43,603 bases of DNA. Source: Patescibacteria group bacterium (lineage in GTDB: Bacteria; Patescibacteriota; Minisyncoccia; Phycocordibacterales; Phycocordibacteraceae). A program made the position numbers and the translations under genes. Shown here piece after piece: positions 6,356 through 39,870 of this stretch. Below the pieces are notes generated by a model. It did no database searches. It saw only the letters and a list, made by a program, of their open reading frames with translations, and was not told the origin of the DNA. The first letter of the stretch is position 1. Each line of letters opens with the position of its first letter. The DNA lies in contig SCVI01000069.1 in the NCBI GenBank assembly GCA_004296925.1, forward strand, positions 1 through 43,603, given 5' to 3'.

Positions 6356-6518
6356 AATGGAGAGGTGGCTGAGTGGAGGAAATAAGAACTACTTCTTATT
6401 TCCTCCGATTCCGTTTCGGAAAAAACTTTCTGTCTCATTTTATGAGAAAAAGTTTAGGAGGACGAACTTGTTCGAACACTCAGCCTCCTATATCCTTAGA
6501 TTTCGTCACTAGTGTGAC
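6356..6518 (+). repeat. tRNA-Ser 5'-flank module
   Basis: The 21-nt repeat AATGGAGAGGTGGCTGAGTGG occurs at 6356-6376 and 6519-6539. The spacer has hairpins (AGGAAATAAGAA-CTAC-TTCTTATTTCCT, TTCCG-TTT-CGGAA, TCTCAT-TTT-ATGAGA). CACTCAGCC (6477-6485) is antisense to GGCTGAGTG of the repeat. The spacer ends in GTGAC. Confidence 0.6.
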
Positions 6519-6521
6519 AAT

Positions 6522-6608
6522 GGAGAGGTGGCTGAGTGGTCGAAGGCACCACACTCGAAATGTGGCGTACGGGAAACTGTACCGAGAGTTCGAATCTCTC
6601 CCTCTCCG
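6522..6608 (+). tRNA. tRNA-Ser (anticodon CGA), long variable arm, no encoded CCA
   Basis: GGAGAGG acceptor, anticodon loop CTCGAAA, variable arm CGTACGGGAAACTGTAC, T-arm GAGAG-TTCGAAT-CTCTC, 3' strand CCTCTCC-G. Confidence 0.9.
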
Positions 6609-6790
6609 CACCTGATATAAAGATGCCCCGTGAGGGGTTTTCTTTATATCAGGAGGACGAGATTCGAAAACCGGAGCACGAAGGGCGAGGTCGGGCTGGC
6701 GCACTCGACGCATCGTCGCGCCGTAGGGCGTAAGTGAGAACCGGTGTCAAAATGCTTAGTGACGGGAGCCGAATCTCTCCATCTCCGCCA
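6609..6790 (+). repeat. tRNA-Ser 3'-flank module
   Basis: A long hairpin lies at 6611-6653. The antisense T segment GAGATTCGAA lies at 6659-6668, followed by AACCGGAGC, GC-rich hairpins and a terminal GTGAC. The copy CGAATCTCTCCaTCTCCGC at 6770-6788 matches 6591-6609 at 18 of 19 positions and ends in CCA. Confidence 0.6.
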
Positions 6791-6842
6791 AAATTGAAAA
6801 TCGGAATCAGAGACTAATATCGAAAAATGTTACACTAGCGAA

Positions 6843-7811
6843 GTGGAAATTTTTATTGCACTCGCAATCCTAGTTGCAGGTCTTGGAATCCTTATTTATG
6901 GAGCGGATACCTTGGTTAAGGGTGCATCATCTCTCGCATCAAGACTCGGAGTATCTGCACTCGCTGTAGGGCTCACGGTCGTCGCTTTCGGTACCTCAAC
7001 ACCAGAGTTGACTGTCAACATGTATGCAGCACTCACTGGGGCTACTGACCTTGCTGTTGGAAACGTTGTCGGATCAAACGTCGCTAACATTTTGTTAATT
7101 TTGGGTATTACAGCAATTATCACTCCACTCGCTGTGAAGAGTTCAACGGTATGGAAAGAGATGCCATTCGCACTTTTGGGAGGAATTCTTTTGCTCGTAT
7201 TAGGTGCGGACACACTCATTAGTGGTGCTGGTCCAGACATACTGACACGAGGTGAGGGTATTGCACTCTTGGGAGTTTTCGCAATTTTCATGTATTACGT
7301 TGTTGGTCTTGCAAAGCAAAACCCAACCGAAAACGAGGAAGACGTTCACGTGTATTCTACTTTGCGCTCCGTTGTCTATATCGTTCTAGGGCTCGCAGGG
7401 TTGATATTAGGCGGAAAGTTGTTGGTGGATCAAGCAGTATTTTTGGCCGGACTCTTTGGACTCTCTGAGACAGTTATTGGGCTCACCGTTGTTGCTGTCG
7501 GCACATCACTCCCTGAGCTCGCAACGTCAATAATTGCTGCACGTCGAGGACAACACGATATTGCGGTAGGTAACATTATTGGTTCAAACATCTTTAATAT
7601 CTTTTGGATATTAGGGCTCACTGCACTTATTACGCCAATACCAACTCCAACATCTTTTGTGGCCGATATTTCGTTTGAACTCGTTGTATCCACAATACTA
7701 TTCATCATTATGTTTGTTGGTCGGCGACACACCATCGACCGTTGGCAGGGGTGGGCGTTTCTTGGACTATACATTGCCTACATCACGTACCTGTTAACGT
7801 TGGCTAAATAA
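6843..7811 (+). CDS. Ca2+/Na+ antiporter, CaCA (YrbG-like) family
   Basis: 322 aa, multi-pass, with two alpha-repeat motifs (GTSTPELTV and GTSLPELATS). GTG start. Confidence 0.8.
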   Translation: MEIFIALAILVAGLGILIYGADTLVKGASSLASRLGVSALAVGLTVVAFGTSTPELTVNMYAALTGATDLAVGNVVGSNVANILLILGITAIITPLAVKSSTVWKEMPFALLGGILLLVLGADTLISGAGPDILTRGEGIALLGVFAIFMYYVVGLAKQNPTENEEDVHVYSTLRSVVYIVLGLAGLILGGKLLVDQAVFLAGLFGLSETVIGLTVVAVGTSLPELATSIIAARRGQHDIAVGNIIGSNIFNIFWILGLTALITPIPTPTSFVADISFELVVSTILFIIMFVGRRHTIDRWQGWAFLGLYIAYITYLLTLAK

Positions 7812-7837
7812 TATCTTCAGTACAGTACACTTATTAG

Positions 7838-8410
7838 GTGAAAGAAACATTTGCAGTTGTTGCGGCACTTCTCGCTATTGTTGGCAACCTCCCGTACCTC
7901 ATAGACATTGTGAAGGGGAGGGTAAAACCACATCCTTATACGTGGCTAGTTTGGACGATTGTTTCTTTTATTATTTTCTTTGGGCAGGTGGCTAAAGGTG
8001 CAGGTATTGGCGCACTTCCAACAGCGGCGTCTGAAATATTTACTATAATCATTTTCATTTTCTCACTGAAATACGGATTCAAAGGAATAACTAAAACCGA
8101 CACAATTTTTTTGGTAGTTGCACTTCTAGGTATCATTCCGTGGATACTGACTAAGGACCCTACGCTTTCGGTGATATTTGCCGTTTCAATTGATTTAATT
8201 GCCTTTATACCAACCCTTGGTAAGACATGGCGGTATCCTAAAACCGAGACACCTATTTTATACAGCATGAATGTTCTGCGTCATATTTTGGCTCTTTTCT
8301 CACTCCAGGCATATAACATAGCTACTACGCTTCATTCGATAGCAATGATTATCGTAAACTCTATAATGACCGTAATGATTGTATTTAAGAAAACAAAAAG
8401 ACGAATATGA
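7838..8410 (+). CDS. Hypothetical multi-pass membrane protein
   Basis: 190 aa with about 6 hydrophobic segments. GTG start. No family recognised. Confidence 0.5.
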   Translation: MKETFAVVAALLAIVGNLPYLIDIVKGRVKPHPYTWLVWTIVSFIIFFGQVAKGAGIGALPTAASEIFTIIIFIFSLKYGFKGITKTDTIFLVVALLGIIPWILTKDPTLSVIFAVSIDLIAFIPTLGKTWRYPKTETPILYSMNVLRHILALFSLQAYNIATTLHSIAMIIVNSIMTVMIVFKKTKRRI

Positions 8411-9015
8411 AGTCACTTGAAGAAGCCTTACGACATCTTAAAAAAGATGAGCAATTCAAAGTAGTTATTAAAAACTACCCTGCGCCAGTGTTTAAGAAGA
8501 CACGTAACGTATACGGGGCGCTGATTCGATCAATCGTGTATCAGCAACTCTCTGGTAAAGTGGCTGGGACTATTTTGAAAAGGTTTCTTGATTTGTTTGA
8601 AGGCCCAAGCTACCCAAAGCCAGAGGAACTATTAAAAGTGAATACTGCAACATTAAGGGAAGTGGGGCTCTCTGGACAAAAGGTATCGTACATACAAGAT
8701 TTATCTACAAAATTTTTGGATGGCACCATTCAACCAAAAAAATTCAAAGGAATGAGTGACGAAGAAATACGTGAACATTTAATAGCCATAAAGGGAATTG
8801 GGCGATGGAGTGCTGATATGTTTTTAATGTCTTCGCTCCACAGACCTGATGTATTACCTACAGGAGACTTAGGAATACAAAAAGGTTTTAAGAAATTATT
8901 TGCACTAAAAACACTGCCAAGTGTTACGCAAATGGAGCGCCTCGCTAAGCCATGGCAGCCCTATAGAACTGTCGCGTCTATGTATCTTTGGCGAATTGCG
9001 GATGAGGATAAATAG
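8407..9015 (+). CDS. DNA-3-methyladenine glycosylase II-like (HhH-GPD, AlkA family)
   Basis: 202 aa. Contains IKGIGRWSADMFLM (helix-hairpin-helix) and the downstream PTGDLG motif typical of AlkA-type glycosylases. Confidence 0.7.
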   Translation: MKSLEEALRHLKKDEQFKVVIKNYPAPVFKKTRNVYGALIRSIVYQQLSGKVAGTILKRFLDLFEGPSYPKPEELLKVNTATLREVGLSGQKVSYIQDLSTKFLDGTIQPKKFKGMSDEEIREHLIAIKGIGRWSADMFLMSSLHRPDVLPTGDLGIQKGFKKLFALKTLPSVTQMERLAKPWQPYRTVASMYLWRIADEDK

Positions 9016-9022
9016 ATAGTGG

Positions 9023-10279
9023 CTATGTTCCTTCTTGCCAGCTTGAGAGGTAGTGTTTCTGCTCTTCAGTAAGAGTATCTACTTGAATACCCATTGAGGC
9101 TAGTTTTAGGTTTGCTACACGGTTTTCAATTGCTTCGTCAATTTCGTACACACCAGGCTTTAGTGAATCTTTATGTTCAACTACCCATGAAGAAGCGAGT
9201 GCTTGTGTTGCAAAACTCATGTCCATTACAGACGCAGGGTGTCCTTCTGCAGCAGCGAGATTAACTAAACGTCCTTCACCTATAACGTAAAGTCTTTTGC
9301 CGTTTAAAAGAAATTCATCCACGTGTTTTCGAACATCTTTTGTCACCCTCTCAGCCATTTGTTCAAGTGCTTTAAGATTTATTTCAACGTCGAAGTGACC
9401 TGAGTTACAAAGGATTGCTCCGTCTTTCATTAATGGGAAATGCGCCTTATCAATAACATTGATATCGCCAGTCAAGGTGCAGAAAATATCACCAATCAAC
9501 GCAGCGTCTTTCATTGGCATAACTTCAAAGCCATCCATCACTGCCTCCAATGCCTTAATAGAATCCACTTCGGTAACAATGGTACGAGCTCCCATACCAC
9601 GAGCACGCATCGCAAATCCTCGGCCACACCAGCCGTACCCACCAACCACAACCACCTTGCCTGCAATGAGTGAGTCTGTTGCGCGTATAATTCCGTCGAG
9701 TGTTGATTGTCCTGTACCGTATCGGTTATCGAAAAGATTCTTGGTTTTTGCATCGTTTACTGCAACAACCGGGATTTTTAAGGCGCCATCTTTTGCCATG
9801 GCACGAAGTCGTATAACACCAGTAGTAGTTTCTTCCATGCTTCCCATAATTTGAGACGTAAGTTCGGGATGCTTTTGATGTATGACCGTAATGAGGTCAG
9901 CGCCATCGTCCATAGTGATAACTGGTTTATGAGCGATAGCCGATTCGATGTGTGAAAAAAAAGTTTCTTTGCTTTCGCCTCGGATTGCGTAGACTTGTAT
10001 ACCGTAATCTTGTACCAAGCTCGCCGCAACATCGTCTTGAGTAGAGAGGGGATTTGATGCAACCAAAAGAACGTTACCGCCACCTGCTTTTAGGGTTCGC
10101 ATTAAGTTTGCGGTTTCTGCGGTCACATGAAGACACGCTGAAAAATTCATATCTTTAAATGGGAGTGTTTTTTCAAATTGTGCACGCACGTCGCGCAACA
10201 CTGGCATATCTCTCTCAGCCCATTCAATTCGCTTCTTTCCTTGAGGTGCAAGGCTAATGTCTTTAATATCGTAATTCAT
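9023..10279 (-). CDS. ahcY: Adenosylhomocysteinase
   Basis: 418 aa. The N-terminus [26 protein letters not shown] and the NAD-binding GYGWCGRG are characteristic. Confidence 0.9.
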
Positions 10280-13954: not shown

Positions 13955-15127
13955 TTATGGCAGGAATTGTCTCAAAAATCCCAACACAGAACGCCCCATA
14001 TCTTTTATTGCAATTCCAGCAGCGGGACGCGCAAAACTATCTCCAGTGAGACCCCATACAGTAAGCCCGTATGCAACTGCCCATGTTGAATCTTTAATTT
14101 TTGCATCCGACGCAACATTGAGTGATGCAACTTTTGAATGAAGTTTTAATGCACTCTCTGCAATTTCTTTAATAGGACCAATACCAGAACCTCCACCAGA
14201 AAGAATAATTCCAGCAGGAAGCAAACGGTCCTTTCCTAGTTTTTTTAGATGTCCTTCAACGAGTTCAAAAATATCAGTGAGTCGCGCTGCCAAAATATCA
14301 TCAAATTTTTTCTTTGAATATGAAGCGTTAGTTATTGCTCCAAGTTTTAATTGCTCCGCTTCTTCAAGTGAAATACGAAGTCCGAGTGCAATGTCTTTTG
14401 TGATATCCATCGATCCGATTCGGAACACTTTGAGAGATATTGGCATCCCGTTATCAAAAACCACAATTGATACTGTTTCTGCGCCAATATTTGTGAGCAC
14501 GCAGCCGGCTTTTTTCTCTGCATTTGAAAGTGTAATGATGGAACCTGCAAGTGGTGATGCCATAGTATCCGCTACAGCAATCTCTGCGCCCTCTACAGCC
14601 TCTATAAGATCGTTCACGTGCTGCTCAAGACACGTAATGAATAGTGTCTCAACAGTGAGCTTCGTGCCATGCATTCCTTGAGGGCGACCCAAGACTTCAA
14701 TTCCATCAATAGAGAAGGTGAGAGGAATTGTGTGTAAAATTTTTCGATTTACTAGTTTCCCAGACACATTAGTTCTCGAAACTTCGATAGCTTTTTCAAT
14801 ATCAAAATCTGTTACTTCAGCATCCGCTTTTGCAATAATTGCGTCACCTTTACCACGCACTTCATCTAATCCAATTCCTCCTATAGAAAGGAAAGCGGTT
14901 CTGATTTTTACTCCAGCGGTTTGTTCGGCCTGTGAAGCAGCGAATCGAACCGATCGAGCTACATCATCAATATTTACAATGTACCCATGACGCAAACCTT
15001 TTGACTCTGCGTATCCTGTTCCGATAATTTTTGGAAATTGAGATGTTCTATCTGCGAACTCGCGCGCAATGACAACACGCACCTGATAGGTGCCGATATC
15101 AATGCCAACCGCGATTCGAGATGCCAT
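13955..15127 (-). CDS. ftsA: Cell division protein FtsA
   Basis: 390 aa actin-fold protein (VGIDIGTYQVRV, LSGGGSGI), immediately upstream of ftsZ. Confidence 0.9.
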   Translation of the reverse strand: MASRIAVGIDIGTYQVRVVIAREFADRTSQFPKIIGTGYAESKGLRHGYIVNIDDVARSVRFAASQAEQTAGVKIRTAFLSIGGIGLDEVRGKGDAIIAKADAEVTDFDIEKAIEVSRTNVSGKLVNRKILHTIPLTFSIDGIEVLGRPQGMHGTKLTVETLFITCLEQHVNDLIEAVEGAEIAVADTMASPLAGSIITLSNAEKKAGCVLTNIGAETVSIVVFDNGMPISLKVFRIGSMDITKDIALGLRISLEEAEQLKLGAITNASYSKKKFDDILAARLTDIFELVEGHLKKLGKDRLLPAGIILSGGGSGIGPIKEIAESALKLHSKVASLNVASDAKIKDSTWAVAYGLTVWGLTGDSFARPAAGIAIKDMGRSVLGFLRQFLP

Positions 15128-15154
15128 GTAATTGAAGACAAGGCATCTAGCTTC

Positions 15155-15544
15155 CTACGAAGGTGTAGGGAACTTGAGTGCCAAACAGTATTTACGTTCT
15201 AACATTTCCATTGTACGGCCATGATTCCTTCCCTCCAAGTGCAACATGCCGTGGATAACAAGGAAGTTGAGGTAGTCTGAGGTCGTCATGTTGAATGTTT
15301 TTGCTTTCTTTTTTACATCTTGCATGCAAAGAAAAATCTCACCATTTGTTTTTGAAAGAGGAAAGGCAAGAATGTCAGTTGAAGAATTTTTATGTCGGTA
15401 GGTGTTGTTTAACGTATGCATCTTTCGTGGAGGAATGAAGACAACAGACAGATCATACTTTTCTCCAAGTACTAGATTTTTAATACGATTAAAAGACACC
15501 TTTGGTGTAGGGTGTGTGGCGGTATTGGTAACGCTTACGTTCAT
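15155..15544 (-). CDS. ybeY: rRNA maturation endoribonuclease YbeY
   Basis: 129 aa with the HGMLHLEGRNH metal-binding motif. Confidence 0.85.
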   Translation of the reverse strand: MNVSVTNTATHPTPKVSFNRIKNLVLGEKYDLSVVFIPPRKMHTLNNTYRHKNSSTDILAFPLSKTNGEIFLCMQDVKKKAKTFNMTTSDYLNFLVIHGMLHLEGRNHGRTMEMLERKYCLALKFPTPS

Positions 15545-15795
15545 TATCTTCGGCTTCCTCGAGAGGTGCGAGGTTCTAGCAAACCGAGACGCTCAAGCTC
15601 TGCATTTTTCTCTCGTTTTGATACGCGACGAAGTGCGGCTTGTTTTCGCTTTGATTGTGAAACATTTCGCTGGTAGTAGCGGTTATCCTTTACACGACGA
15701 ATGATACCCGAACCAAGTACTCGTTTTGAAAAACGGCGCACCAAGCTCATTGAGTTCTCTGTCCCTGTTTTCTCTACCGATACGTTTATTGCCAT
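15544..15795 (-). CDS. rpsU: 30S ribosomal protein S21
   Basis: 83 aa, very basic. SLVRRFSKRV...YYQRNVSQSKRKQAALRR matches the S21 pattern. Confidence 0.75.
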   Translation of the reverse strand: MAINVSVEKTGTENSMSLVRRFSKRVLGSGIIRRVKDNRYYQRNVSQSKRKQAALRRVSKREKNAELERLGLLEPRTSRGSRR

Positions 15796-15847
15796 TGTTG
15801 CGCTATTTAAGCATAATCGTCACTCTAACGCAACTTCCCACCACGCA

Positions 15848-16963
15848 TTATCCGCGTCTTCCGCGTCCTACATGACTTGCTAGTTTTTCAAACGGTACCG
15901 TTACTTGCATCTGCGTTGCAACAGAGCGCACAATGGCTGTGCCGTCGAGTGCTTCACGCTGGCCAATTATGGCAAGATACTTTGCGCCAGAACTTACCCC
16001 CATGTCTACCTGTTCCCTCAAATTGTCTGCCATGAGCGCATTACCAGTCGCAAGCTCGGTTCGCCAAAGTGATTCAAGAAGTGCAAATGCACGAAGCTTT
16101 GCAGCGTCTCCTACATGAATGACAAAACACGACGGTTCTTCCTCAGAAGCATCGAGGTCGATTCGTTTTCCAATCTCTAGACTCATCGCTACTACTGGTT
16201 CAGCTGCACTTCCGCGTGCCCGTTTCATTAATTCATCGTATCTACCACCAGACGCAATTCGTACACGTGCACCTTTTGTGTCGCTACCTTCAACCGCAAA
16301 CAGAAGTTCAGATTCAGCGTTTGGTTCAGCGGAGAGACGTGGATCAAGAGTGTACTGAATACCTACCGACTCAAATAATGCCAAAGTACTCAGCATAGTT
16401 TTTCGTGAATTTTCTGAAAGGTAGTCAATCGAGCGTGGCATTTTTTCAATCGTGTTTTCAGTGTCATTACTTAGTTCGCGGTATAGTGCGTCCGGATCAC
16501 TTTGAGCCATTGATTTTTTATCTTCAGGGATTACGTCAGGGTTTTTTCGGAAAAAATTTCCAAGTTCACGAGTGAAGCGTTTTCTAGACTCAGCGTCACC
16601 AACTGAGGACACGAGTACCGTAAGATTAGTGAAACCAAGGATTTCAGCAATTGAGAGTATTGTTTTTACAATAAGCGCTGGTGCTATTGCATGACGTGTC
16701 GAAAGAACCGCAAACGAGATAAGCGTATTTGATCCTTTGCGCGCAGTGCTCCATATTTGTGTCGGGTTACTTCCTTTAGTAGATGTTGTGGTATTGAGTA
16801 GCGCCATTGAAGCTGCCGCTTTCGTGTTGGTTACCGTCTGTTGATCGTTGAGTGCGCGCTTAGAAATGTTAGTAGGAGCTCCTGCGAACCCATACGCTGA
16901 CGCAATGCGCGCGATGGATCCTTCAATTGATTCGTGCAGTCTTCCTTTTTCTAGTGATCGCAT
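15848..16963 (-). CDS. Histidyl-tRNA synthetase-like protein (class II aaRS, HisS/HisZ family), divergent
   Basis: ASGGRYDELM (the HisRS GGRYD motif) and a C-terminal anticodon-binding-like YLAIIGQREALDGTAIVR. I could not find canonical motif 2 or RGLDYY. I moved the start to Met21 (MRSLEKG) to avoid overlap with lepB. Confidence 0.55.
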   Translation of the reverse strand: MRSLEKGRLHESIEGSIARIASAYGFAGAPTNISKRALNDQQTVTNTKAAASMALLNTTTSTKGSNPTQIWSTARKGSNTLISFAVLSTRHAIAPALIVKTILSIAEILGFTNLTVLVSSVGDAESRKRFTRELGNFFRKNPDVIPEDKKSMAQSDPDALYRELSNDTENTIEKMPRSIDYLSENSRKTMLSTLALFESVGIQYTLDPRLSAEPNAESELLFAVEGSDTKGARVRIASGGRYDELMKRARGSAAEPVVAMSLEIGKRIDLDASEEEPSCFVIHVGDAAKLRAFALLESLWRTELATGNALMADNLREQVDMGVSSGAKYLAIIGQREALDGTAIVRSVATQMQVTVPFEKLASHVGRGRRG

Positions 16964-29367: not shown

Positions 29368-29525
29368 ATGCTTTACATACAATATCGTAGACTCATTGTA
29401 TGTAAAGCATGCGCGTTGCACTCGTTCGGAAATAATAATGCGAGCATTATTATTTCACTCACTCATGTGGGACCTCGTAGGTCCCACATAAAGTGTTTAC
29501 ACTGAGTGAGTGCAACGAGTCGAAG
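29368..29525. other. Highly structured intergenic segment (nested inverted repeats)
   Basis: A 16-bp perfect inverted repeat: ATGCTTTACATACAAT (29368-29383) with ATTGTATGTAAAGCAT (29395-29410). Further hairpins are GAAATAATAATGC-GA-GCATTATTATTTC and TGTGGGACC-TCGT-AGGTCCCACA. ACTCACTCA pairs with TGAGTGAGT. Confidence 0.5.
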
Positions 29526-29699
29526 TGTGGGCGGAAGAGGACTTGGTCACACATAAAATTTCTGACGAAATTTTTGCCCGACCCTGGCTCGGCAATTTTG
29601 CCTTATGCTTCGCATAAACAAAATTACACCTCCGCTTTTCAAGTCCTCACGCACGCAAAACAATTTGCGTGCTTTCCGCCTACACTCGTAAACTCATTG
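29526..29699 (-). repeat. tRNA-Leu(TAG) 3'-flank module
   Basis: The 20-nt repeat TGTGGGCGGAAGAGGACTTG occurs at 29526-29545 and 29698-29717. The plus-strand TTCAAGTCCTC at 29638-29648 is antisense to the T-loop and 3' T-stem on the tRNA strand. GTCAC abuts the distal copy. The hairpin is GCACGCAAA-ACAA-TTTGCGTGC. Confidence 0.65.
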
Positions 29700-29781
29700 T
29701 GGGCGGAAGAGGACTTGAACCTCCACCCCTTGCGGGACCAGCTCCTAAGGCTGGCGCGTCTGCCAATTTCGCCATCCGCCC
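29700..29781 (-). tRNA. tRNA-Leu (anticodon UAG), long variable arm
   Basis: The reverse complement reads GGGCGGA..CCAGC-CTTAGGA-GCTGG..TCCCGCAAGGGGT..GGAGG-TTCAAGT-CCTCT-TCCGCCC-A. Confidence 0.9.
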
Positions 29782-29918
29782 AATAGGGGAGATTGTACAC
29801 TATTCTATTGAAAAAGAATCATATCTGCATTACAGTGATGGAATTCCGCCAGTAAGCATAGCTTTCGGGCGGTCACTTCTGAGATAATGTTTATAAAGAA
29901 TCATTGATCTTCTCAGTT

Positions 29919-29991
29919 CCGCCCGTAGCTCAGTTGGTAGAGCAGCTCCCTCTTAAGGAGACGGTCGTAGGTTCGAGCCCTACCGGGCGGA
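29919..29991 (+). tRNA. tRNA-Lys (anticodon CUU) with a C1-G72 acceptor pair
   Basis: CCGCCCG-TA-GCTC-AGTTGGTA-GAGC-A-GCTCC-CTCTTAA-GGAGA-CGGTC-GTAGG-TTCGAGC-CCTAC-CGGGCGG-A. Confidence 0.85.
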
Positions 29992-30001
29992 CAACTAATC
30001 T

Positions 30002-30559
30002 TTAAAACGTGTATAGGTACAAAGTGTGTTTATTGTATCCTTTGCCGATTTCGACAGTGCGTTCAAATTCTTTTGATTTGAAAGGGAAGTCACACGAGAC
30101 GACTATAGTTCCAGGACGCAAGTCTTTATTGAGTTTTGGGAGTAACGACTCCACAACCTCTGGAAATAGATACATATACACATGTGTCGCATCTGCAAGT
30201 GATACTTTAGAAAAATCTTTGAAAAGTACTTTTGTGTTTGAAAGAGGTTTTTTCCAAAATCGAAATAGAGATAAAAAGTATGGGAGTGGTGCTTTTTCAA
30301 CACCGATTGCGCGTGCAGTGGGGCAGTCTTCAGCTAACGCAGCAATCACGCGTCCATCACCCGAACCAAGATCATACAGAACATCACCGGATTTTAGAGG
30401 AATCGTAGTTCTGGTGGCGTCTACAATTTTTTGTGATACTGGCACATAGGGGACTTTAACTGCAAGGATTCCATATGTCATGAATAAAATAAAAAGAACA
30501 CTAAAAAGCCACGCGATTGTTAACATGAGATAAAGAATGACAAAAAGAGTGAATTCCAT
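30002..30559 (-). CDS. Membrane-anchored class I SAM-dependent methyltransferase
   Basis: N-terminal TM helices, then VLYDLGSGDGRVIAALA (motif I). Confidence 0.55.
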   Translation of the reverse strand: MEFTLFVILYLMLTIAWLFSVLFILFMTYGILAVKVPYVPVSQKIVDATRTTIPLKSGDVLYDLGSGDGRVIAALAEDCPTARAIGVEKAPLPYFLSLFRFWKKPLSNTKVLFKDFSKVSLADATHVYMYLFPEVVESLLPKLNKDLRPGTIVVSCDFPFKSKEFERTVEIGKGYNKHTLYLYTF

Positions 30560-30583
30560 TTCGAACAGTATAACCCTTTTCTT

Positions 30584-30762
30584 TTTGTGCCCGGGGTGGG
30601 CGACCAGGAGGTCGTACCGAGAGGGGCTCGGCTACCAGTTTCGGCTCTCCTACGTTCGCCTCTCTGTCAGCCCCAGCTCGCGGTTTTCAGAGACTGAAAA
30701 CACCGCTCCGCTTTTCGAGTCCAACACGCATACGAAGCAGTTCGTATGCTCCAATCACTTTG
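30584..30762 (-). repeat. tRNA-Leu(TAA) 3'-flank module
   Basis: The 17-nt repeat TTTGTGCCCGGGGTGGG occurs at 30584-30600 and 30759-30775. The plus-strand TTCGAGTCCaAC at 30713-30724 matches the T-loop and 3' stem sequence at 11 of 12 positions, in antisense orientation. The hairpin is GCATACGAA-GCAG-TTCGTATGC. Confidence 0.6.
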
Positions 30763-30844
30763 TGCCCGGGGTGGGACTCGAACCCACACTTCTTACGAAA
30801 CTCGATCTTAAGTCGAGCGCGGCTACCAATTACGCCACCCGGGC
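30763..30844 (-). tRNA. tRNA-Leu (anticodon UAA), long variable arm
   Basis: The reverse complement reads GCCCGGG..CTCGA-CTTAAGA-TCGAG..GTGGG-TTCGAGT-CCCAC-CCCGGGC-A. Confidence 0.9.
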
Positions 30845-30889
30845 AGGCACCACTATTTCTACCATGAAAAATTCTTAGACTACAGTTTT

Positions 30890-31030
30890 GAGGCCATGGC
30901 GGGAATTGGTCACCCGTCATTTTGTGCCGTCACACAAAATGCGCTCGACCCCGACTCGGCATTTCGTGAGACACAAAATATGCCTCCGTCTTTCAATTCC
31001 CGACGTAAAGCGTGCAGATGCTTTACTCAA
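30890..31030 (-). repeat. tRNA-Cys 3'-flank module
   Basis: The 19-nt repeat GAGGCCATGGCGGGAATTG occurs at 30890-30908 and 31033-31051. The plus-strand TTCAATTCCCG lies at 30992-31002. GTCAC abuts the distal copy. The scaffold motif GCTCGACCCCGACTCGGCA (30943-30961) matches the Leu(TAG) module at 29576-29594 at 16 of 19 positions. Confidence 0.65.
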
Positions 31031-31105
31031 TGGAGGCCATGGCGGGAATTGAACCCGCGCATCGCGGTTTTGCAGACCGCTGCGTTACCACTTCGCCACA
31101 TGGCC
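31031..31105 (-). tRNA. tRNA-Cys (anticodon GCA), CCA encoded
   Basis: The reverse complement reads GGCCATG..GCGGT-CTGCAAA-ACCGC..CGCGGG-TTCAATT-CCCGC-CATGGCC-T-CCA. Confidence 0.9.
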
Positions 31106-31119
31106 GTATCGCTACAATA

Positions 31120-31434
31120 CTACGCACTTGGCGTATCGTCGACTCCCATATCAGGGTCGGGGAGAAATACCGCGCGCGGAAGCACGTGTAGTCGTGTTTT
31201 GGATTTTAAAAATGACCTAAACTCGTCCGATTGTCTTGAAAGAAAATCGGTGACTGCGTGTGTTTGGTCTTTCGGATACACACTCACGTAAATACGAGCT
31301 TTTTTCCCCGCATCTTCTAATTCTACTCGTGTGACGGTGATGAGAGAGCGCCGATTAGATTCACGGTTTATAAATATTGCAGCGGCGTCTTTAAGCTCCG
31401 AAGCTAAACGATTGTCTCTATGATCAGTATTCAT
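31120..31434 (-). CDS. rbfA: Ribosome-binding factor A
   Basis: 104 aa. Contains RLASELKDAAAIFI...ITVTRVELEDAGKKARIYVSVYP. Its start overlaps the infB stop. Confidence 0.8.
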   Translation of the reverse strand: MNTDHRDNRLASELKDAAAIFINRESNRRSLITVTRVELEDAGKKARIYVSVYPKDQTHAVTDFLSRQSDEFRSFLKSKTRLHVLPRAVFLPDPDMGVDDTPSA

Positions 31435-35768: not shown

Positions 35769-38465
35769 ATGCCACCACCATTTGGAAATTTCACTACAAA
35801 AGCAAAAGAAGCAGTTCGGAAAGCGCACGAACTTGCAATTGAACGTGGTCAAAATCATGTAAGTTCGTTACACCTCATGGGAGCGCTCGCTCTTCAAGAG
35901 GATTCCATAGTGCTTGCAATACTTGAACGATTGGAAATTGACGCAATACTTTTCGCCGACTCTATTTTGGAGTTATTAGAAGCACCACCAGCAGGTTCAG
36001 TAATGTCACCGTCCTACCAGCTATATCTCACACCTGACTTAGCGCAAGCGCTTGAAAGTGCGGTAAAAATTGCAGCAACATTCAACGAGTCTTTTGTTTC
36101 TGTAGAGCATCTTTTTCTTGGCGTGCTTGAACACACTGGTCCATCAGCGGAATTATTCAACCGGTTTCGTATCGAAAAAAATGCAGTTTTGTCAGTTATT
36201 CAAGAATTTCGATCAGGTAGAAACTCAGAGGTGCAAGAGCCAAAAAAGATGCGCGCACTTGGTAAGTACACAAGGAACCTCACAAAACTTGCTGCTGAAA
36301 ACAAACTAGATCCTGTAATAGGTCGCGATGTTGAGATTAGCCGTGTTATCCAGATACTTTCGCGTAGAACAAAAAATAATCCAATCCTGATTGGAGAGGC
36401 CGGAGTAGGAAAAACAGCTATTGCCGAAGGATTGGCAAGCCGTATGGCGGTAAATGATGTCCCTGAATCTTTGAAGGGTAAAGAGCTCTTGATGCTTGAT
36501 CTTGGGATGCTCATTGCGGGTACAAAATATCGCGGGGAATTTGAAGAGCGATTAAAGACAATAATGAAAGAGGTTGAAAAGTCATCAGGGAAGGTAATTC
36601 TTTTTGTTGATGAGATTCATACACTTGTAGGAGCTGGAGCAGCAGAGGGTGCAATGGATGCGAGTAACATGCTTAAACCGGTACTTGCTCGAGGTGACTT
36701 CAGAGTTATTGGTGCAACGACTATAAAGGAGTATCAGCAACACATTGAGCGAGACCCCGCGCTCACTCGTAGGTTCCAACCTGTGTTTGTAAATGAACCG
36801 TCAGTAGAAGATGCGGTTGCGATTTTAAGAGGACTTCGTGAGAAGTATGAACTTTATCACTCGGTACGCATCACTGATGACGCAATTGTTGCAGCGGTTG
36901 AATTATCGTCTCGTTACATCACCGATCGTTTTCTTCCCGATAAGGCAGTCGATTTAATTGACGAGGCGGCGTCTGCATTGAAAATTTCACTTGAAAATAA
37001 GCCTGCCGCACTTGAAGTTACTGATAGAAAAATCATGCGTCTTGAGATTGAATTAGCTGCACTCCAGAAAGATGAAGATGCTCACGTGGGCAAGAATACG
37101 AAAACGCGTATGAAAGCAATCGAAAAAGAAATTGCAGAACTCAGAGAGACAACCGCAGAACTTGAAGTGAAGTGGAAAAACGAAAAAGAAGTGCTTACGG
37201 CAATTAGTTCACTAAAAAAGGAACTTGACCAGTTGCGCTCTGAAGCAGAGTCGGCCGAAGCAAGGGCAGATTTATCGCGTGCGGCTGAAATTCGCTACGG
37301 CACAGTGCCAACTCTCGAAAAGAGTTTAGAAAAAGAAAACGATAAGTTAAAGCGTTTCCAACGCTCACGAAGAGTATTGCGAGAAGAAGTTACCGATGTT
37401 GATATTGCAGAGGTAGTAAGCCGTTGGACCGGAGTGCCAGTTTCTAGGATGCTCGAAGCGGAAGCTAAGAAGCTTGCTCGCATGGAAGATGAGCTTAAAT
37501 CAGCGGTGGTGGGGCAAGACGACGCCGTACGCCTAGTGTCTGATGCAGTGAAGCGCTCTCGCGTTGGTATTGCAGACCCAAACCGTCCTATTGGTTCATT
37601 TCTTTTTTTAGGCCCAACCGGTGTAGGTAAAACAGAGCTTTCGAAAGCGCTTGCGAAATTTATGTTTGACGACGAGTCAGCAATCATTCGTGTAGACATG
37701 AGTGAGTTCATGGAGAAACACTCGGTGTCGAAGATGATTGGTTCACCTCCAGGATATGTTGGTCACGAAGAAGGAGGATCACTTACTGAAAAAATTCGTC
37801 ATCGACCATACGCTGTCGTGCTATTCGACGAAATTGAGAAGGCACACCCTGAAGTCTTTAACGTACTTTTACAGGTATTAGATAATGGTCAGCTTACAGA
37901 TGCGAAGGGAAGAAAGGTAAATTTCAAAAACTCAATTGTGATTTTGACATCGAACATTGGTGCTGAATACATCGATAAGATGTCGAGCTTCGGATTTACA
38001 AGTTCTGGCGGAACAGATGCAGGCGAGTATGAACTCGCTAAGGAAAAGGTAATGGGTCGCCTAAAAGACTACTTCCGTCCTGAATTTTTAAACCGACTTG
38101 ATGAAATAATTATCTTCAACATTCTTGCTGCCGAAGCTTTGAAGTCGATTGTCGATATGCAAGTGAAAATTGTGAAGGATAGACTCGCTACAAAAGACAT
38201 TACACTCGAAATCCATCCCGAAGTGTATGCATTCCTTTCAAAGGAAGGGTATAACCCTCAATACGGCGCACGCCCATTGAAGCGCCTCATTCAATCAAAA
38301 ATTCTTACACCGGTTGCATCGTTCATGGTGTCGCGAGGTGTTATGGAAGGAGGGACAGTTAGTGTCAGTATGAAAGGAAATGAGTTTGTCTTTGACGTCG
38401 TAAAGAGTGCACGTGCTAAAAAATCGCATAGAGCGAAGGTTGGGACAGCGGGTTCAAAAAAATAG
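35769..38465 (+). CDS. clpB: ATP-dependent chaperone ClpB
   Basis: Clp N domain, two AAA modules (GEAGVGKTAI and GPTGVGKTEL) and a long middle coiled coil. ORF track start is 35730; the Met at 35769 (MPPPFGNFT) fits better. Confidence 0.93.
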   Translation: MPPPFGNFTTKAKEAVRKAHELAIERGQNHVSSLHLMGALALQEDSIVLAILERLEIDAILFADSILELLEAPPAGSVMSPSYQLYLTPDLAQALESAVKIAATFNESFVSVEHLFLGVLEHTGPSAELFNRFRIEKNAVLSVIQEFRSGRNSEVQEPKKMRALGKYTRNLTKLAAENKLDPVIGRDVEISRVIQILSRRTKNNPILIGEAGVGKTAIAEGLASRMAVNDVPESLKGKELLMLDLGMLIAGTKYRGEFEERLKTIMKEVEKSSGKVILFVDEIHTLVGAGAAEGAMDASNMLKPVLARGDFRVIGATTIKEYQQHIERDPALTRRFQPVFVNEPSVEDAVAILRGLREKYELYHSVRITDDAIVAAVELSSRYITDRFLPDKAVDLIDEAASALKISLENKPAALEVTDRKIMRLEIELAALQKDEDAHVGKNTKTRMKAIEKEIAELRETTAELEVKWKNEKEVLTAISSLKKELDQLRSEAESAEARADLSRAAEIRYGTVPTLEKSLEKENDKLKRFQRSRRVLREEVTDVDIAEVVSRWTGVPVSRMLEAEAKKLARMEDELKSAVVGQDDAVRLVSDAVKRSRVGIADPNRPIGSFLFLGPTGVGKTELSKALAKFMFDDESAIIRVDMSEFMEKHSVSKMIGSPPGYVGHEEGGSLTEKIRHRPYAVVLFDEIEKAHPEVFNVLLQVLDNGQLTDAKGRKVNFKNSIVILTSNIGAEYIDKMSSFGFTSSGGTDAGEYELAKEKVMGRLKDYFRPEFLNRLDEIIIFNILAAEALKSIVDMQVKIVKDRLATKDITLEIHPEVYAFLSKEGYNPQYGARPLKRLIQSKILTPVASFMVSRGVMEGGTVSVSMKGNEFVFDVVKSARAKKSHRAKVGTAGSKK

Positions 38466-38501
38466 AAAAAAGTGCTACGCTAGTCGCTGGCCCAGTATTT
38501 T

Positions 38502-38584
38502 GCGTCGGTACTCAAGTGGTCAACGAGGGGAGACTGTAAATCTCCTGACTTCGGTCTTCGTTGGTTCGAATCCAACCCGGCGCA
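38502..38584 (+). tRNA. tRNA-Tyr (anticodon GUA), long variable arm
   Basis: GCGTCGG-TA-CTC..GGGAGA-CTGTAAA-TCTCC-TGACTTCGGTCTTC-GTTGG-TTCGAAT-CCAAC-CCGGCGC-A. Confidence 0.9.
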
Positions 38585-38748
38585 CAGAAACAAAAACCAG
38601 CCCCTCAGGGGGCGATTTTTGTCTGTGCGTCGGAGCAAGGCATAGGAATGCCTTGCGTGTTGGATTCGAAAGGTCGAGCATCTGAGTAAGCGAAGCGCTC
38701 AGGCGAGACCTGTACAGGGTTCTGTAAGAACCGAATCCAACCCGGTGC
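38585..38748 (+). repeat. tRNA-Tyr 3'-flank module
   Basis: A long hairpin lies at 38585-38626. A copy of the 5' acceptor strand, TGCGTCGG, lies at 38626-38633. The hairpin GCAAGGCAT-AGGA-ATGCCTTGC follows. The antisense T segment GTTGGATTCGAA lies at 38659-38670. The copy CGAATCCAACCCGGtGC at 38732-38748 matches 38567-38583 at 16 of 17 positions. Confidence 0.65.
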
Positions 38749-38850
38749 TCACCCTGCGAAGCGCAGGCCCTCACTTCCCTGCGGAAGTCCCGATGCCGGA
38801 CCCTTCCGCCTTTTTCATCCTTTAACTATCATCCTGAGGGAACAATTAAT

Positions 38851-39204
38851 GTGAACGTGAGCGGTGATACTGGTCAGAACCGTGATCTCGTTCTTACTTC
38901 GTATGAGCCGGTCAATTGGGTGCTTACAGTTCAGAATGGTGTACTGATTAATAAAATAATCGTTTCTGGATACCATTTATCGCGCGTTACAAATGTTCCA
39001 TCTGGTACACAAGTTGAATATCATTCTCTTTCTACCAATGGTAAGTACAATTATTCCTATCAGAGTTCGGGCCAGGAATACGATTCTCTAAAACAGTGGC
39101 TTACGGGCCTTTACAGAGCACCGGATGGAGAGTTAGATGGAAATTTCATGTTCCCGGGCTACAGCGCTTCTTCAATTAATGTGTACGTTGGGTATAAGGG
39201 ATAG
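38851..39204 (+). CDS. Hypothetical protein (GTG start, possibly a fragment)
   Basis: 117-aa ORF with no signal peptide and no recognisable family. Confidence 0.3.
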   Translation: MNVSGDTGQNRDLVLTSYEPVNWVLTVQNGVLINKIIVSGYHLSRVTNVPSGTQVEYHSLSTNGKYNYSYQSSGQEYDSLKQWLTGLYRAPDGELDGNFMFPGYSASSINVYVGYKG

Positions 39205-39346
39205 ATCTTAAACTGAAACTCCTATATACTCTCTGGCGATCAAGAATTGAAATTTCGTGCATCGTTCGTTTCGTTCAGTATTCCAGTCATGTTCAGTAGG
39301 TCCGGACATTTTGACCCATATCGAAAGCTAAGGTATAGTACACGGC

Positions 39347-39505
39347 ATGTCTCAAGACAACCTCATAAAAATGAAATCTTCGGCTTCTGGTCACATTGTG
39401 TGGACGAGGAAGAATAAGAAAAAACTTGCAAATAGTAAGCTTGAACTCAAAAAGTTTGACCCTGTTGTTCGAAAGCGAGTGAAATACAAAGAGTCTAAGA
39501 AATAA
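39347..39505 (+). CDS. rpmG: 50S ribosomal protein L33 (Cys-less form)
   Basis: Not in the ORF track because it is under 60 aa. Translation: [68 protein letters not shown]..RKRVxYKE matches L33. It lies upstream of tRNA-Trp, as in many bacteria. Confidence 0.8.
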
Positions 39506-39684
39506 GTCTTTATCCTCCTTTCAGCTTATAGTTTCGAGTGTTAAACTCCCTAACTGAGGGCCTCGCTCGTTTATGCGACGCAGGTTCGGCATCTGGAACT
39601 TGGGCCTCGGCTGTTTACTAAAACAGCGTAGGCCCTGCATTCGGAAAGAATATGTGTGAGGACACCACATTCTCTTCCTCACTT

Positions 39685-39755
39685 GGGCCTATAGTTCAAT
39701 GGTAGAATTACGGTCTCCAAAACCGTCGATCAAGGTTCGAATCCTTGTGGGCCCG
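39685..39755 (+). tRNA. tRNA-Trp (anticodon CCA)
   Basis: GGGCCTA-TA-GTTC..ACGGT-CTCCAAA-ACCGT..CAAGG-TTCGAAT-CCTTG-TGGGCCC-G. Confidence 0.9.
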
Positions 39756-39870
39756 CTACATAGTCATATGTAAAGATCCGAAAGGATTCGAACCGTAGCC
39801 GTAGGGAGCGAAGAGCGACCGTAGGTCTCGAGTCGCAGTAGCGACGAGAGGCGAATCCTTGTGGGCCCGC
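39756..39870 (+). repeat. tRNA-Trp 3'-flank module (short form)
   Basis: The antisense T segment AAGGATTCGAA lies at 39782-39792. The 19-nt copy CGAATCCTTGTGGGCCCGC at 39852-39870 is identical to 39738-39756. Confidence 0.65.

Follow-up and report, generated by a model that had tools for sequence, protein, structure and literature searches.

The window, the whole 43,603-nt stretch of DNA analysed here, belongs to a Paceibacteria-type genome of the candidate phyla radiation (CPR) and contains eight tRNA genes, which ARAGORN and Rfam placed at the positions given in the original prediction. [quoted passage not shown] An extra conserved hairpin, P0, is usually present directly 5′ of this antisense arm, and the Leu-UAG, Leu-UAA and Tyr modules have a second antisense segment (arm2) complementary to the acceptor 3′ strand. 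According to their scaffolds, the Ser, Leu-UAG, Leu-UAA and Cys modules were assigned to class A, the Tyr module to class B and the Trp module to class C.

Direct copies were scored as the longest exact match to tRNA positions 54-73 within 260 nt downstream of the gene and compared to shuffled flanks. Exact direct copies of 11-18 nt were found starting 95-161 nt past the gene (p≤0.0005 for each of the six tRNAs), and exact antisense matches of 9-12 nt starting 25-73 nt past the gene (p 0.0005-0.01); p was ≤0.01 for every tested piece of the six modules. All six antisense strings quoted in the original prediction are present, and the sharing of antisense segment and copy by six tRNAs that it described was borne out. 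The tRNA-Glu and tRNA-Lys genes, our controls within the window, have no module and showed only 5-nt chance matches. A serine recombinase gene adjoins tRNA-Glu.

The tRNA-Ser(CGA) gene (6522-6609, plus strand) is followed by a class A module at 6610-6789 (R2 match 6658-6786, 39 bits). It starts with a terminator-like hairpin (6612-6652), continues with arm1 (GAGATTCGAA, 6659-6668) and the P2/P3 scaffold, and ends in a 20-nt copy with one mismatch (6770-6789). The segment at 6356-6521, upstream of the gene on the same strand, had been counted as a seventh member of the series. It turned out to be a mirror-image module at the 5′ side of tRNA-Ser and not another 3′ module: a 21-nt repeat of the 5′ end of the tRNA, including three leader nucleotides (6356-6376), and an antisense arm (CACTCAGCCTCC, 6477-6488) enclose a hairpin and body.

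Three class A modules lie on the minus strand. Downstream of tRNA-Leu(UAG) (29699-29781), the module at 29526-29698 (R2 match 29529-29648, 81 bits) consists of arm2 (29674-29685), P0 (29651-29672), arm1 (GAGGACTTGAA, 29638-29648), the scaffold (29546-29637) and an exact 20-nt copy (29526-29545). The module of tRNA-Leu(UAA) (gene 30762-30844, module 30584-30761; R2 match 30614-30724, 82 bits) has a long P3. Its arm2 (30751-30758) pairs through G.U and is followed by P0 (30728-30749), arm1 (GGACTCGAA, 30714-30722), the scaffold and a copy at 30584-30600. Copies of 17-20 nt with at most one mismatch had been described for all six tRNAs, but the Leu-UAA copy measures 15-17 nt and contains an indel. 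At tRNA-Cys(GCA) (31031-31105), the module at 30890-31030 (R2 match 30892-31002, 105 bits) comprises P0 (31005-31026), arm1 (CGGGAATTGAA, 30992-31002), the scaffold (30909-30991) and an exact 19-nt copy (30890-30908).

The two remaining modules are encoded on the plus strand. Downstream of tRNA-Tyr(GUA) (38502-38585), the class B module at 38586-38748 (R1 match 38661-38748, 44 bits) includes a terminator-like hairpin (38600-38613), arm2 (38625-38633), P0 (38635-38656), arm1 (GTTGGATTCGAA, 38659-38670), the scaffold (38671-38731) and the copy (38732-38748). Neither here nor at the Ser locus did we find a promoter-like site after the terminator-like hairpin between tRNA and module. The tRNA-Trp(CCA) gene (39685-39756) is followed by a class C module at 39757-39870, with a hairpin (39757-39772), arm1 (AAGGATTCGAA, 39782-39792), the scaffold (39793-39851) and an exact 19-nt copy (39852-39870). 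A small 5′ module upstream of this gene (39598-39635, plus strand) was recognised by reading the sequence alone, without statistics; it contains a copy (ACTTGGGCCT, 39598-39607), a hairpin and the antisense segment TAGGCCC (39629-39635). The Trp-type scaffold was also found at Trp and Tyr genes of the related loci L005, L009, L010 and L011. By contrast, L003 represents an empty Trp site, in which CTTCGTCCGACGTAGCC and a GIY-YIG gene are located directly 3′ of tRNA-Trp without a module.

The scaffold folds into a three-way junction with helices P2 and P3, and the strong covariation of this fold is real. In the class B alignment, 26 of 30 pairs show compensatory changes and 92% of cells are paired across 73 distinct matches. 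The covariation score of 0.635 compares with 0.171 after shuffling (none of 500 shuffles attained 0.635) and with at most 0.108 when partners were slid. Class A shows compensatory changes in 17 of 26 pairs. The motif AAGCGGAGG, its relatives and the terminal GTGAC, which the original prediction had noted, are indeed there and form parts of P2 and P3. In addition, unpaired nucleotides at the junction are conserved, and GCGAAGC, a stable mini-hairpin sequence, is frequent in module loops. One G.U pair of class A is invariant in 16 of 16 sequences and G.U combinations outnumber A.C combinations (80 versus 33 and 150 versus 32), which indicates that the tRNA-sense strand is the folding strand. Single-stranded folded DNA would yield identical covariation, and DNA hairpins tolerate G.T pairs.

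When 81 related loci with 342 tRNAs were searched with two covariance models, modules were found after 138 of the 342 tRNAs (about 40%). Presence or absence of a module is polymorphic among relatives. The linkage to tRNA 3′ ends is strict: 153 of 164 matches lie within 1 kb downstream of a same-strand tRNA, at a median distance of 59 nt. In metagenomes, 56 of 73 matches follow tRNAs of 29 anticodon types, and one follows a tmRNA (L183), with arms that fit the tmRNA end. Related 5′ modules are located upstream of 22 tRNAs in relatives, and L025 harbours a tandem array (182 bp × 5). No module copies were found in phage or viral contigs.

At different tRNA types, scaffold interiors are 85-99% identical and the arms track the host tRNA, just as had been proposed. 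The block of identity stops exactly in T-loop-derived sequence on both sides, and scaffold classes span deeply diverged genomes (IF-2 only 45% identical). The distal copy exists in a long form, covering positions ~56 to 73 or beyond, and a short form (56-65); the acceptor-strand copy is absent from 43% of the modules, with a sharp boundary at position 65/66. Overall, duplication boundaries vary, from positions 53-61 at the left end and from 73 to beyond 79 at the right end. In all 24 informative cases arm1 fits the tRNA better than the distal copy. Arm2 complements the acceptor 3′ strand and a further 1-3 nucleotides of the trailer; it is no commoner where the module has kept the acceptor-strand copy (14 of 79 modules) than where this copy is missing (23 of 77). 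Taken together, the behaviour of the two arms suggests that they may act on the 3′ end of the upstream gene itself.

The original prediction knew of no described family with this architecture. This did not hold, as the tRNA-linked repeats (TLRs) of E. coli and the Rfam family RtT (RF00391) share the layout (Egan & Landy 1978; Bosl & Kersten 1991; Rudd 1999; reviewed in PMC8144298). [quoted passage not shown] Like the CPR modules, the E. coli units lie directly 3′ of a tRNA gene on the same strand, end in a copy of its last 18-19 nt that differs by locus with the upstream gene, and have an antisense arm ~60 nt past the tRNA that pairs with the copy and closes a structured interior. The tyrT/tyrV units, for instance, have the antisense segment GGGGAAGGAT and the copy AATCCTTCCCCCACCACCA, and the RtT consensus has a closing helix (GgGaaGGAU...AUCCuuCcC) before a 3′ tail. 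Tandem arrays occur in both (178 bp × 3.14 in E. coli, 182 bp × 5 in L025).

The differences are also clear. In the CPR modules the scaffold forms a three-way junction and comes in at least three classes; hairpin P0 is additional, as is the second arm, which is directed at the acceptor strand, and the family includes 5′ mirror modules and a tmRNA-linked member. About 40% of the tRNAs surveyed here have a module, compared to 10 loci in E. coli. Unlike that of the TLRs, the CPR copy lacks CCA, because the tRNA genes studied here do not encode it. Moreover, we detected no sequence or covariance-model similarity to RtT: the RF00391 model finds no CPR module even at E≤10. The CPR family is a widespread and previously uncatalogued putative relative of the TLRs in a layout already described; since the RtT model misses it, homology with the E. 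coli family is unproven and the likeness may be convergent.

The rrn-linked TLRs of E. coli have been shown experimentally to be processed read-through sRNAs (PMC8144298). [quoted passage not shown] The terminator-module arrangement of the rrn-linked TLRs resembles that of the CPR Ser and Tyr loci, and the proposal that their repeated 3′ end recruits the RNase of the upstream gene is shared with our reading of the CPR modules. The rrn-TLR and 3′ETS-leuZ RNAs are bound by Hfq and CsrA (GGA motifs) or sponge sRNAs, partners of a kind not known from CPR. At most, the CGGAG/CGGAA motif of class A hints at such a partner.

We tentatively favour, with not quite even credence, the view that the modules correspond in CPR to the RtT-type TLRs, as structured RNAs of TLR-like kind in the 3′ trailer, and that they spread by recombination in the T-loop. 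Each unit is a short non-coding element just 3′ of a tRNA or tmRNA gene and on its strand. One of its three parts is an inverted copy of the 3′ third of that gene, in which P0 separates arm1 from arm2 where the latter is present; the others are the three-way-junction scaffold (P2 and P3, at least three classes) and the direct copy of the 3′ end. The unit is predicted to act as an RNA, produced when transcription continues beyond the tRNA, in some cases across a terminator hairpin, and would have no cis-encoded protein. Arm and copy restore a helix resembling that of T-stem and acceptor, so the ends of the unit would be cut by the tRNA 3′-end maturation enzymes. Recombination or template switching may give rise to new copies and scaffold swaps; it would take place in the T-loop sequence, which is short and near-universal and flanks the scaffold at either end. 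Unequal crossing-over between repeated 3′ ends may lengthen the arrays. Simple unequal crossing-over does not explain how a new tRNA gains a new antisense arm. Furthermore, the arms may act on the upstream gene's 3′ end beyond closing the module, which the processing-mimic idea does not predict and which counts against it.

Alternatively, the modules could be miniature non-autonomous mobile DNA that integrates into the T-loop or 3′ end of tRNA and tmRNA genes, an explanation that we consider unlikely. Its free form would be a circle or single strand of ~100-180 nt, in which antisense arms and sense copy rebuild the target duplex, resembling the folded attP of CTX phage or attC of integrons. 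A recombinase encoded elsewhere would recombine it with the tRNA gene, and the element would bring a new tRNA 3′ end and terminator, leaving the old end as the distal copy. In CTX attP(+) and attC, inverted and direct images of the target surround a structured loop of ~60-140 nt, structure is conserved beyond sequence and arrays form beside the target site, as for the CPR modules. The order of sense copy, short body, antisense arm, ~70-100-nt loop and sense copy is the residue expected from folded-hairpin integration. The empty and filled Trp sites, tmRNA as a target (as with classical integrative elements), scaffolds almost identical between tRNA types and the frequent GCGAAGC loops fit as well, as do arm2 complementing the trailer nucleotides after the first copy but not after the second, and the chimeric distal copies of L049, L031, L061 and L071, whose left part differs from the tRNA while the right is identical. 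However, no integrase or HUH gene (IS200/IS605-type single-strand transposase/Rep) was found near any module, and no autonomous version among the 342 tRNAs or in viral contigs. T-loop integration cannot directly give the 43% of modules that lack the acceptor-strand copy, a double-stranded circle that small is implausible, the invariant G.U and the G.U excess better fit RNA, and RNA is the form in which the analogous units of E. coli are known. The CPR modules further differ from attP(+)/attC in having no identified Xer- or IntI-type partner, a tRNA end instead of dif or attI as target, RNA-type signals and a body of only tens of nucleotides. Only an unusual form of the miniature integrative element in the original prediction would be conceivable.

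It seems improbable that the modules work in cis as RNA switches of the tRNA precursor, tuning maturation or downstream termination. Here arm2 and arm1 would zip, starting at the trailer or terminator hairpin, into the acceptor 3′ strand and T-arm of the tRNA, locking read-through precursors in a long hairpin, whereas an alternative P1 (arm1 with the distal short copy) would close the three-way junction and free the tRNA, a junction-binding factor choosing between the two states. The 24 of 24 cases in which arm1 follows the tRNA give some support to this, and likewise to the three-segment alternative pairing suggested originally. Both P1 strands stay tRNA-identical even beside an unrelated tail, arm2 occurs without a tail partner (for example in the tmRNA module L183), the terminator hairpin sits at the apex of the long inverted repeat of gene 3′ end and arms, and unpaired junction nucleotides are conserved. 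On the other hand, invasion of a folded tRNA after transcription is unlikely, and array collapse, combining a new arm with an old copy, could also make arms look younger than copies. No ligand or protein partner is known, and the presence of modules on only ~40% of orthologous tRNAs implies that any regulation is dispensable.

Replication template switching at palindromes (terminator hairpin, T-arm) could produce functionless sense-antisense-sense inverted triplications of the tRNA 3′ end, maintained only by mutational input. The sense/antisense/sense order with a hairpin at each junction, the variable boundaries and the mirror-image modules at tRNA 5′ ends are in line with this, but it cannot explain two conserved scaffold classes common to all tRNA types across deeply diverged genomes, with compensatory changes and invariant junction nucleotides. 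The covariation largely refutes it, and we consider it very improbable.

Ordinary att scars would be what arbitrary deletions have left of islands or prophages that carried an integrase and once occupied these tRNA genes. In favour of this, islands are classically recognised by direct repeats of tRNA 3′ ends, and a serine recombinase gene abuts tRNA-Glu. As in genomic islands and cis-mobilizable remnants (CIMEs) with attL/attR, presence is polymorphic and tmRNA is also targeted, but the CPR interval is 95-180 bp instead of kilobases and has no integrase gene. Among the 342 tRNAs no large islands were seen and, save one tandem array, no interval between tRNA and distal copy exceeded 400 nt. The interior has a conserved structure, covariation and antisense arms and is not a random remnant; integration cannot produce the short-copy form; and tRNA-Glu itself, beside the recombinase, has no module. 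Att scars are hardly credible and for practical purposes refuted, as the original prediction had anticipated. Least credible of all is a TnpB-, IscB- or IS110-type scaffold-plus-3′-guide RNA with its protein outside the window: a ~70-110-nt scaffold before a variable 17-20-nt 3′ segment superficially recalls TnpB omega-RNA, but 43% of modules lack this segment, the guide would equal the intact essential tRNA gene next door and hence be self-targeting, omega-RNA and bridge-type families of Rfam gave no match, genes for a recombinase, TnpB or IS110 were not found next to modules, and the 43.6-kb window, scanned for all ORFs of 165 aa or more, has no TnpB, IscB or IS110-type gene.

The modules also share features with REPINs and MITEs, being short, non-coding, hairpin-forming and multi-copy, without a cis-encoded protein, located at gene 3′ ends and subject to fast turnover. 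In REPINs and MITEs the terminal arms do not vary and are what a transposase recognises, whereas those of the CPR modules copy the neighbouring tRNA and differ per locus.

We read both flanks of all eight tRNA genes in the window, on which ARAGORN and Rfam agreed. Six of these genes (Ser-CGA, Leu-UAG, Leu-UAA, Cys, Tyr and Trp) carry two tRNA-derived segments on their 3′ side, on the same strand. The first begins 25–73 nt past the gene and is an exact antisense of the T-loop and 3′ T-stem (9–12 nt). The second begins 95–161 nt past the gene and repeats the gene's 3′ end in direct orientation, over 11–18 nt exactly or 17–20 nt with 0–1 mismatch. Each flank was shuffled 2000 times for comparison, which gave p≤0.0005 for the direct copies and p=0.0005–0.01 for the antisense arms. 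The tRNA-Glu and tRNA-Lys genes, which served as internal controls, gave 5-nt chance matches only. Since arms and copies are significant at six tRNAs and both controls are negative, the observation behind the original prediction is confirmed, and this permutation of the tRNA flanks places the six arms above chance level. The finding is real, structurally well supported and extends far past the window.

The common plan was derived by reading the modules side by side on the tRNA-sense strand. From 5′ to 3′, the tRNA is followed by a short trailer, in some modules by arm2, and then by P0, arm1, a GAA(R) junction, P2, a second junction, P3 and the copy. Both arms are antisense segments: arm2 covers the acceptor 3′ strand and the discriminator plus 1–3 trailer nucleotides, arm1 tRNA positions 54–64/66. 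P0 is a conserved hairpin of 8–9 bp with the flanks AG...CGU, and the long P2 hairpin is interrupted by a small internal loop or bulge rich in GA. The closing helix, P1, consists of arm1 and the first 9–12 nt of the copy. The scaffolds fall into at least three classes. Class A (Ser, Leu-UAG, Leu-UAA and Cys) reads xyz-GGAG...CGAG-z′y′x′, then GGGG, then a GGUCG...UGACC helix; in class B (Tyr), P2 is followed by GUACYG and a short P3 capped by a GUA triloop; class C (Trp) terminates in ...CGAGAGG. The sequence motifs that had been noticed beforehand (AAGCGGAGG and its relatives, and GTGAC) are present and represent strands of P2 and P3. Readings of the junctions as a K-turn, a hammerhead or a hairpin ribozyme were set aside, as their strand lengths and motifs presumably do not match. 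GCGAAGC, an unusually stable DNA mini-hairpin, recurs in the apical loops of P2, for example at window positions 29600–29612 and 38690–38700, as do GGA-containing loops, with CGGAG/CGGAA invariant in class A. Judged from their sequence, these loops are candidates for a link to a single-stranded DNA form or to CsrA-like binding.

The predicted fold with covariation was found in both of the classes that were aligned. Compensatory changes occur in 26 of 30 pairs of class B (MAFFT alignment of 20 modules, RNAalifold) and in 17 of 26 pairs of class A (16 modules), and the P1 helix is present in both alignments. Among 73 distinct covariance-model hits, 92% of the cells are paired and the covariation score is 0.635, compared to 0.171 for shuffled alignments (0 of 500 reached the observed score) and no more than 0.108 after sliding the partners; because this alignment was fitted to the covariance model, the seed alignments are the cleaner evidence of covariation. 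G.U pairs outnumber A.C pairs in class B (80:33) and in class A (150:32), and one G.U pair in the class A P3 is invariant in all 16 sequences. This excess and the invariant pair indicate that the tRNA-sense strand is the folding strand. In addition, the trailers at Ser and Tyr contain a terminator-like hairpin, and no promoter-like site was found 3′ of these two hairpins. Together, the sense-strand fold, the G.U excess and the promoter-less terminator hairpins are indirect signs that the modules may be transcribed with the tRNA and then processed into a discrete RNA.

A total of 1.27 Mb of related loci was searched at E<0.01 with the covariance models of class B (R1) and class A (R2), which gave 61 and 103 hits, respectively. 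A same-strand tRNA lies within 1 kb upstream of 153 of these 164 hits, at a median distance of 59 nt, and the remaining 11 are mostly located at locus edges. At least one module was found at 138 of 342 tRNAs (40%), with similar rates across every tRNA type sampled. A scan of JGI metagenome contigs for the class A motif yielded at least 80 loci, with at least 73 covariance-model hits. Among the matches listed, 56 of 73 hits lie 3′ of tRNAs, representing 29 different anticodons, one module lies behind a tmRNA gene and one behind a group I intron match. In the region 9056–9629 of metagenome contig L183, the tmRNA-linked class A module is located 78 nt downstream of the gene, past a strong terminator; its arm2 (GTGGAGATG) and arm1 match the tmRNA 3′ end, and its copy is of the short form only. 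On contig L137 (4331–4534 and 4760–4883), the group I intron (RF00028) is located ~230 nt upstream of the module. ARAGORN called no tRNA at this intron, which is probably part of an intron-containing tRNA gene that also bears a module. Phage-borne copies were considered and rejected: the class B motif gave 29 matches in IMG/VR viral contigs, all of them chance matches, with no covariance-model hit and no tRNA nearby.

The tRNA-linked repeats (TLRs) of E. coli have been known since 1978, and their origin has been unexplained since. They and the RtT RNA (RF00391) have the same design as the modules, so the initial impression that no family with this architecture had been described was not borne out. 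In RtT, the outer helix is formed by arm and copy and is followed by a single-stranded acceptor tail, and the P1 helix of the modules has this layout too. The units at E. coli tyrT/tyrV are 178 bp long, with an antisense segment (GGGGAAGGAT) ~60 nt past the tRNA end and a copy (AATCCTTCCCCCACCACCA) at the unit end. TLRs are present in 22 copies at ten loci, in tRNA or rRNA operons (PMC8144298). Those linked to tRNAs have no known function, and the repeat has been suggested to attract the RNase that acts on the gene upstream (PMC8144298). All six window modules are in the TLR position (PMC8144298), directly downstream of the tRNA and on the same strand, as are the 153 of 164 hits in relatives within 1 kb. 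Their copies of 17–20 nt with 0–1 mismatch also agree with the ~18–19 bp over which TLRs are identical to the 3′ terminus of the gene before them (PMC8144298). The RtT model, which detects four units in the E. coli control, gave no hit at E≤10 in window regions 29480–31120 (Leu-UAG, Leu-UAA and Cys) and 38480–39960 (Tyr and Trp), and none in the Ser module, which was searched at the gathering threshold only. Searches against Rfam 15, of the whole window at the gathering score and of the two regions just named at E≤10, gave no match to the modules; the matches were the tRNAs and one LOOT RNA outside the modules, and an IS605-orfB-I match, also outside, was at chance level. As position and repeat agree with TLRs and the RtT model failed, we classify the modules as a TLR variant and not as members of RF00391. 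The design is not categorically new, and the CPR family is undescribed, very abundant and diversified; our literature search found no CPR description of tRNA-linked modules.

The copy occurs in two forms, long and short. In 179 proximal modules, its acceptor-strand part is bimodal, with 0–2 mismatches out of 9 in 79 modules and at least 6 out of 9 in 77. In relatives, 44% of the modules have the full copy, and 43% keep only positions 56–65. By inspection of the alignments, several tail-less modules break at tRNA position ~65/66. In 118 of the 179 modules, arm1 is antisense to the tRNA at 10 or more of 12 positions, and in 24 of 24 cases where copy and tRNA differ (positions 56–66) it agrees with the tRNA. 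At the related locus L059, arm1 fits the tRNA at all scored positions and the copy has 6 mismatches, with no matching copy left. Arm2 is strong in 27% of the modules. Its frequency is not higher among tailed modules (14 of 79) than among tail-less ones (23 of 77), and we therefore rejected the idea that arm2 exists to pair with the tail. At two related loci (L026 and L031), arm2 is complementary to trailer nucleotides of the real tRNA and has C in place of the U of the tRNA 5′ strand. This identifies arm2 as an inverted copy of the gene 3′ end and excludes that it is a copy of the 5′ acceptor strand, as in a module derived from a shrunken duplicate tRNA. Since the arms invert the gene 3′ end, they and the 3′ third of the gene make up a long inverted repeat, with the trailer or terminator hairpin at its apex.

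The modules are polymorphic: at orthologous tRNAs, they are present in some genomes and absent in others. The cleanest case is tRNA-Trp, which at the related locus L003 is directly followed by CTTCGTCCGACGTAGCC... and a GIY-YIG gene, whereas in the window this flank stands after the distal copy. The "empty site" at Leu-UAG of L005 is weaker evidence of absence, because its flank is itself a repeat. Downstream of tRNA-Leu-UAG at L025, we found five identical 182-bp units (15119–15850), each made up of a terminator-bearing trailer, the arms, a scaffold of class B and the full copy. This array is very similar in arrangement to the one downstream of E. coli tyrV (178 bp x 3.14), and several other loci carry two modules in tandem. 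Scaffolds are also exchanged like cassettes. When arm and copy are removed, interiors are 85–99% identical across different tRNA types, including same-genome pairs at L068 (Leu-UAA versus Leu-UAG, 98.9% over 89 nt) and L061 (Leu-CAA versus Tyr, 91%). The L068 block extends exactly from the GGACUUGAA of arm1 through the GACC preceding the copy, and therefore T-loop-derived sequence common to both tRNAs bounds it on both sides. The GIY-YIG nuclease gene of the window (78 aa, 39958–40194, + strand) is located just past the Trp module. Its homologues lie between tRNA-Trp and the distal copy (L010, 141–374) and directly after the module-free tRNA-Trp (L003, 2133–2369). Because this gene is linked to the Trp locus only (3 of 81 loci), it was rejected as a general mobility partner.

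Our preferred reading, which we put forward tentatively, is that the module is an RNA arising from read-through past the tRNA, that tRNA-end enzymes set its ends and that it spreads via T-loop recombination. Arm and copy would rebuild a T-stem/acceptor-like helix, by which these enzymes could define the RNA ends. Copies would arise, be swapped and multiply through recombination or template switching inside the short T-loop sequence, as well as through unequal crossing-over between the repeated 3′ ends. A simple processing mimic does not account for the tracking of the tRNA by arm1, the independence of arm2 from the tail and the templating of a new arm for each host, and these features keep two other readings alive. 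In the first, the modules would be folded-hairpin integrative mini-elements of the CTX-attP or attC type; it is possible but doubtful, and the likeness to these recombination sites is confined to a compatible layout. In the second, which we consider quite unlikely, they would act in cis as an alternative-pairing switch on the tRNA precursor. It is also unlikely that the modules form a protein-less, retargetable mobile element that looks autonomous, the antisense arms of which (arm2, P0 and arm1) would pair with the 3′ third of any tRNA or tmRNA gene and direct insertion of the P2/P3 cassette beside it. Such pairing could take place as RNA or as folded single-stranded DNA, and the insertion would rely on a recombinase or repair enzyme, be it the host's own or a distant one. 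That the modules are pure by-products of replication is implausible, as the covariation nearly excludes it. Ordinary att scars, already disfavoured in the original prediction, are a very implausible source: the interior is conserved and no islands were found. No integrase gene adjoins any window module, and among 342 tRNAs no copy lies beyond 400 nt save for one array; likewise, no distal copy was found 0.4–12 kb from the tRNA except in the L025 array, which leaves no island-sized parents. The least credible proposal is a TnpB- or bridge-type guide RNA, the scaffold-plus-guide of a transposon nuclease suggested beforehand, as it would target its own tRNA gene, a short-copy form exists and Pfam scans of all large window ORFs revealed no TnpB, IscB or IS110-type gene.

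CPR bacteria belong to a phylum very distant from E. coli and have tiny genomes, yet they share the TLR design. The occupancy of ~40% of tRNAs and of tmRNA, the two covarying scaffold classes and the host-matched arms indicate that this design is ancient or recurrent, and constrained. For comparative structure work, the family offers hundreds of natural variants, and it adds at least two candidate structured-RNA families new to Rfam. The purpose and copying of tRNA-linked repeats are now testable, and TLR biology could become tractable. If the retargetable-element reading were true, it would represent nucleic-acid-guided homing aimed at the most conserved sequence of the genome, and the origin of the E. 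coli TLRs would be explained too. Furthermore, the modules will mislead island-finding tools based on repeats of tRNA fragments, and they inflate the 'intergenic' DNA of CPR genomes.

Mirror modules occur on the 5′ side of 26 tRNAs in relatives (≤2 mismatches over 16 nt; ≤1 for 22 of them) and, in the window, at Ser (6356–6521) and, in miniature, at Trp. They consist of a copy of positions 1 to 16–22, ending in the D-loop, a hairpin, a body and often an antisense arm, followed by the real tRNA. Comparison of the Ser module of the window with Tyr and Glu modules of six related loci (L026, L032, L034, L056, L067 and L074) revealed that they have in common the conserved box AAAGGAGGAC(A/G)A and a hairpin placed directly after the D-loop GG. 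Leu-UAA 5′ modules contain a sense and an antisense copy of the anticodon stem, and some 5′ modules are tandemly duplicated (L036, L060 and L080).

Core bacterial genes in the window include those for FtsZ, FtsA, GyrA, ClpB, a short IF-2 and Pth, among others. The nearest relatives of IF-2 (45–67% identity) are found only in Patescibacteria/Paceibacteria MAGs (Parcubacteria, Kaiserbacteria-like), in the genomes of which the tRNA neighbourhood is syntenic. A large serine recombinase of 514 aa (4601–6145, + strand) with Resolvase and Recombinase domains overlaps the 3′ end of the module-free tRNA-Glu (6105–6179, − strand) by 40 nt. The 6 kb upstream (1–6100) have a GC content of 0.35–0.37, compared to ~0.43, and contain a KAP-type P-loop NTPase gene; this region is probably an integrated element adjoining tRNA-Glu. 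In the same low-GC segment, a LOOT RNA (RF03000, 80.7 bits; 3620–3742, − strand) overlaps the start of ORF 2899–3657; this motif of unknown function is typical of Patescibacteria/Paceibacteria phyla. Finally, a structured stretch of ~120 nt follows the Leu-UAG copy (29400–29525, − strand; ACTTCGACTCGTTGCACTCACTCAG...two hairpins...GAACGAGTGCAACG). Its 5′ part recurs after Leu-UAA modules (L011 and L013) and directly after tRNA-Leu-UAG (L005), and by its sequence the stretch looks like another repeat family tied to tRNA ends.
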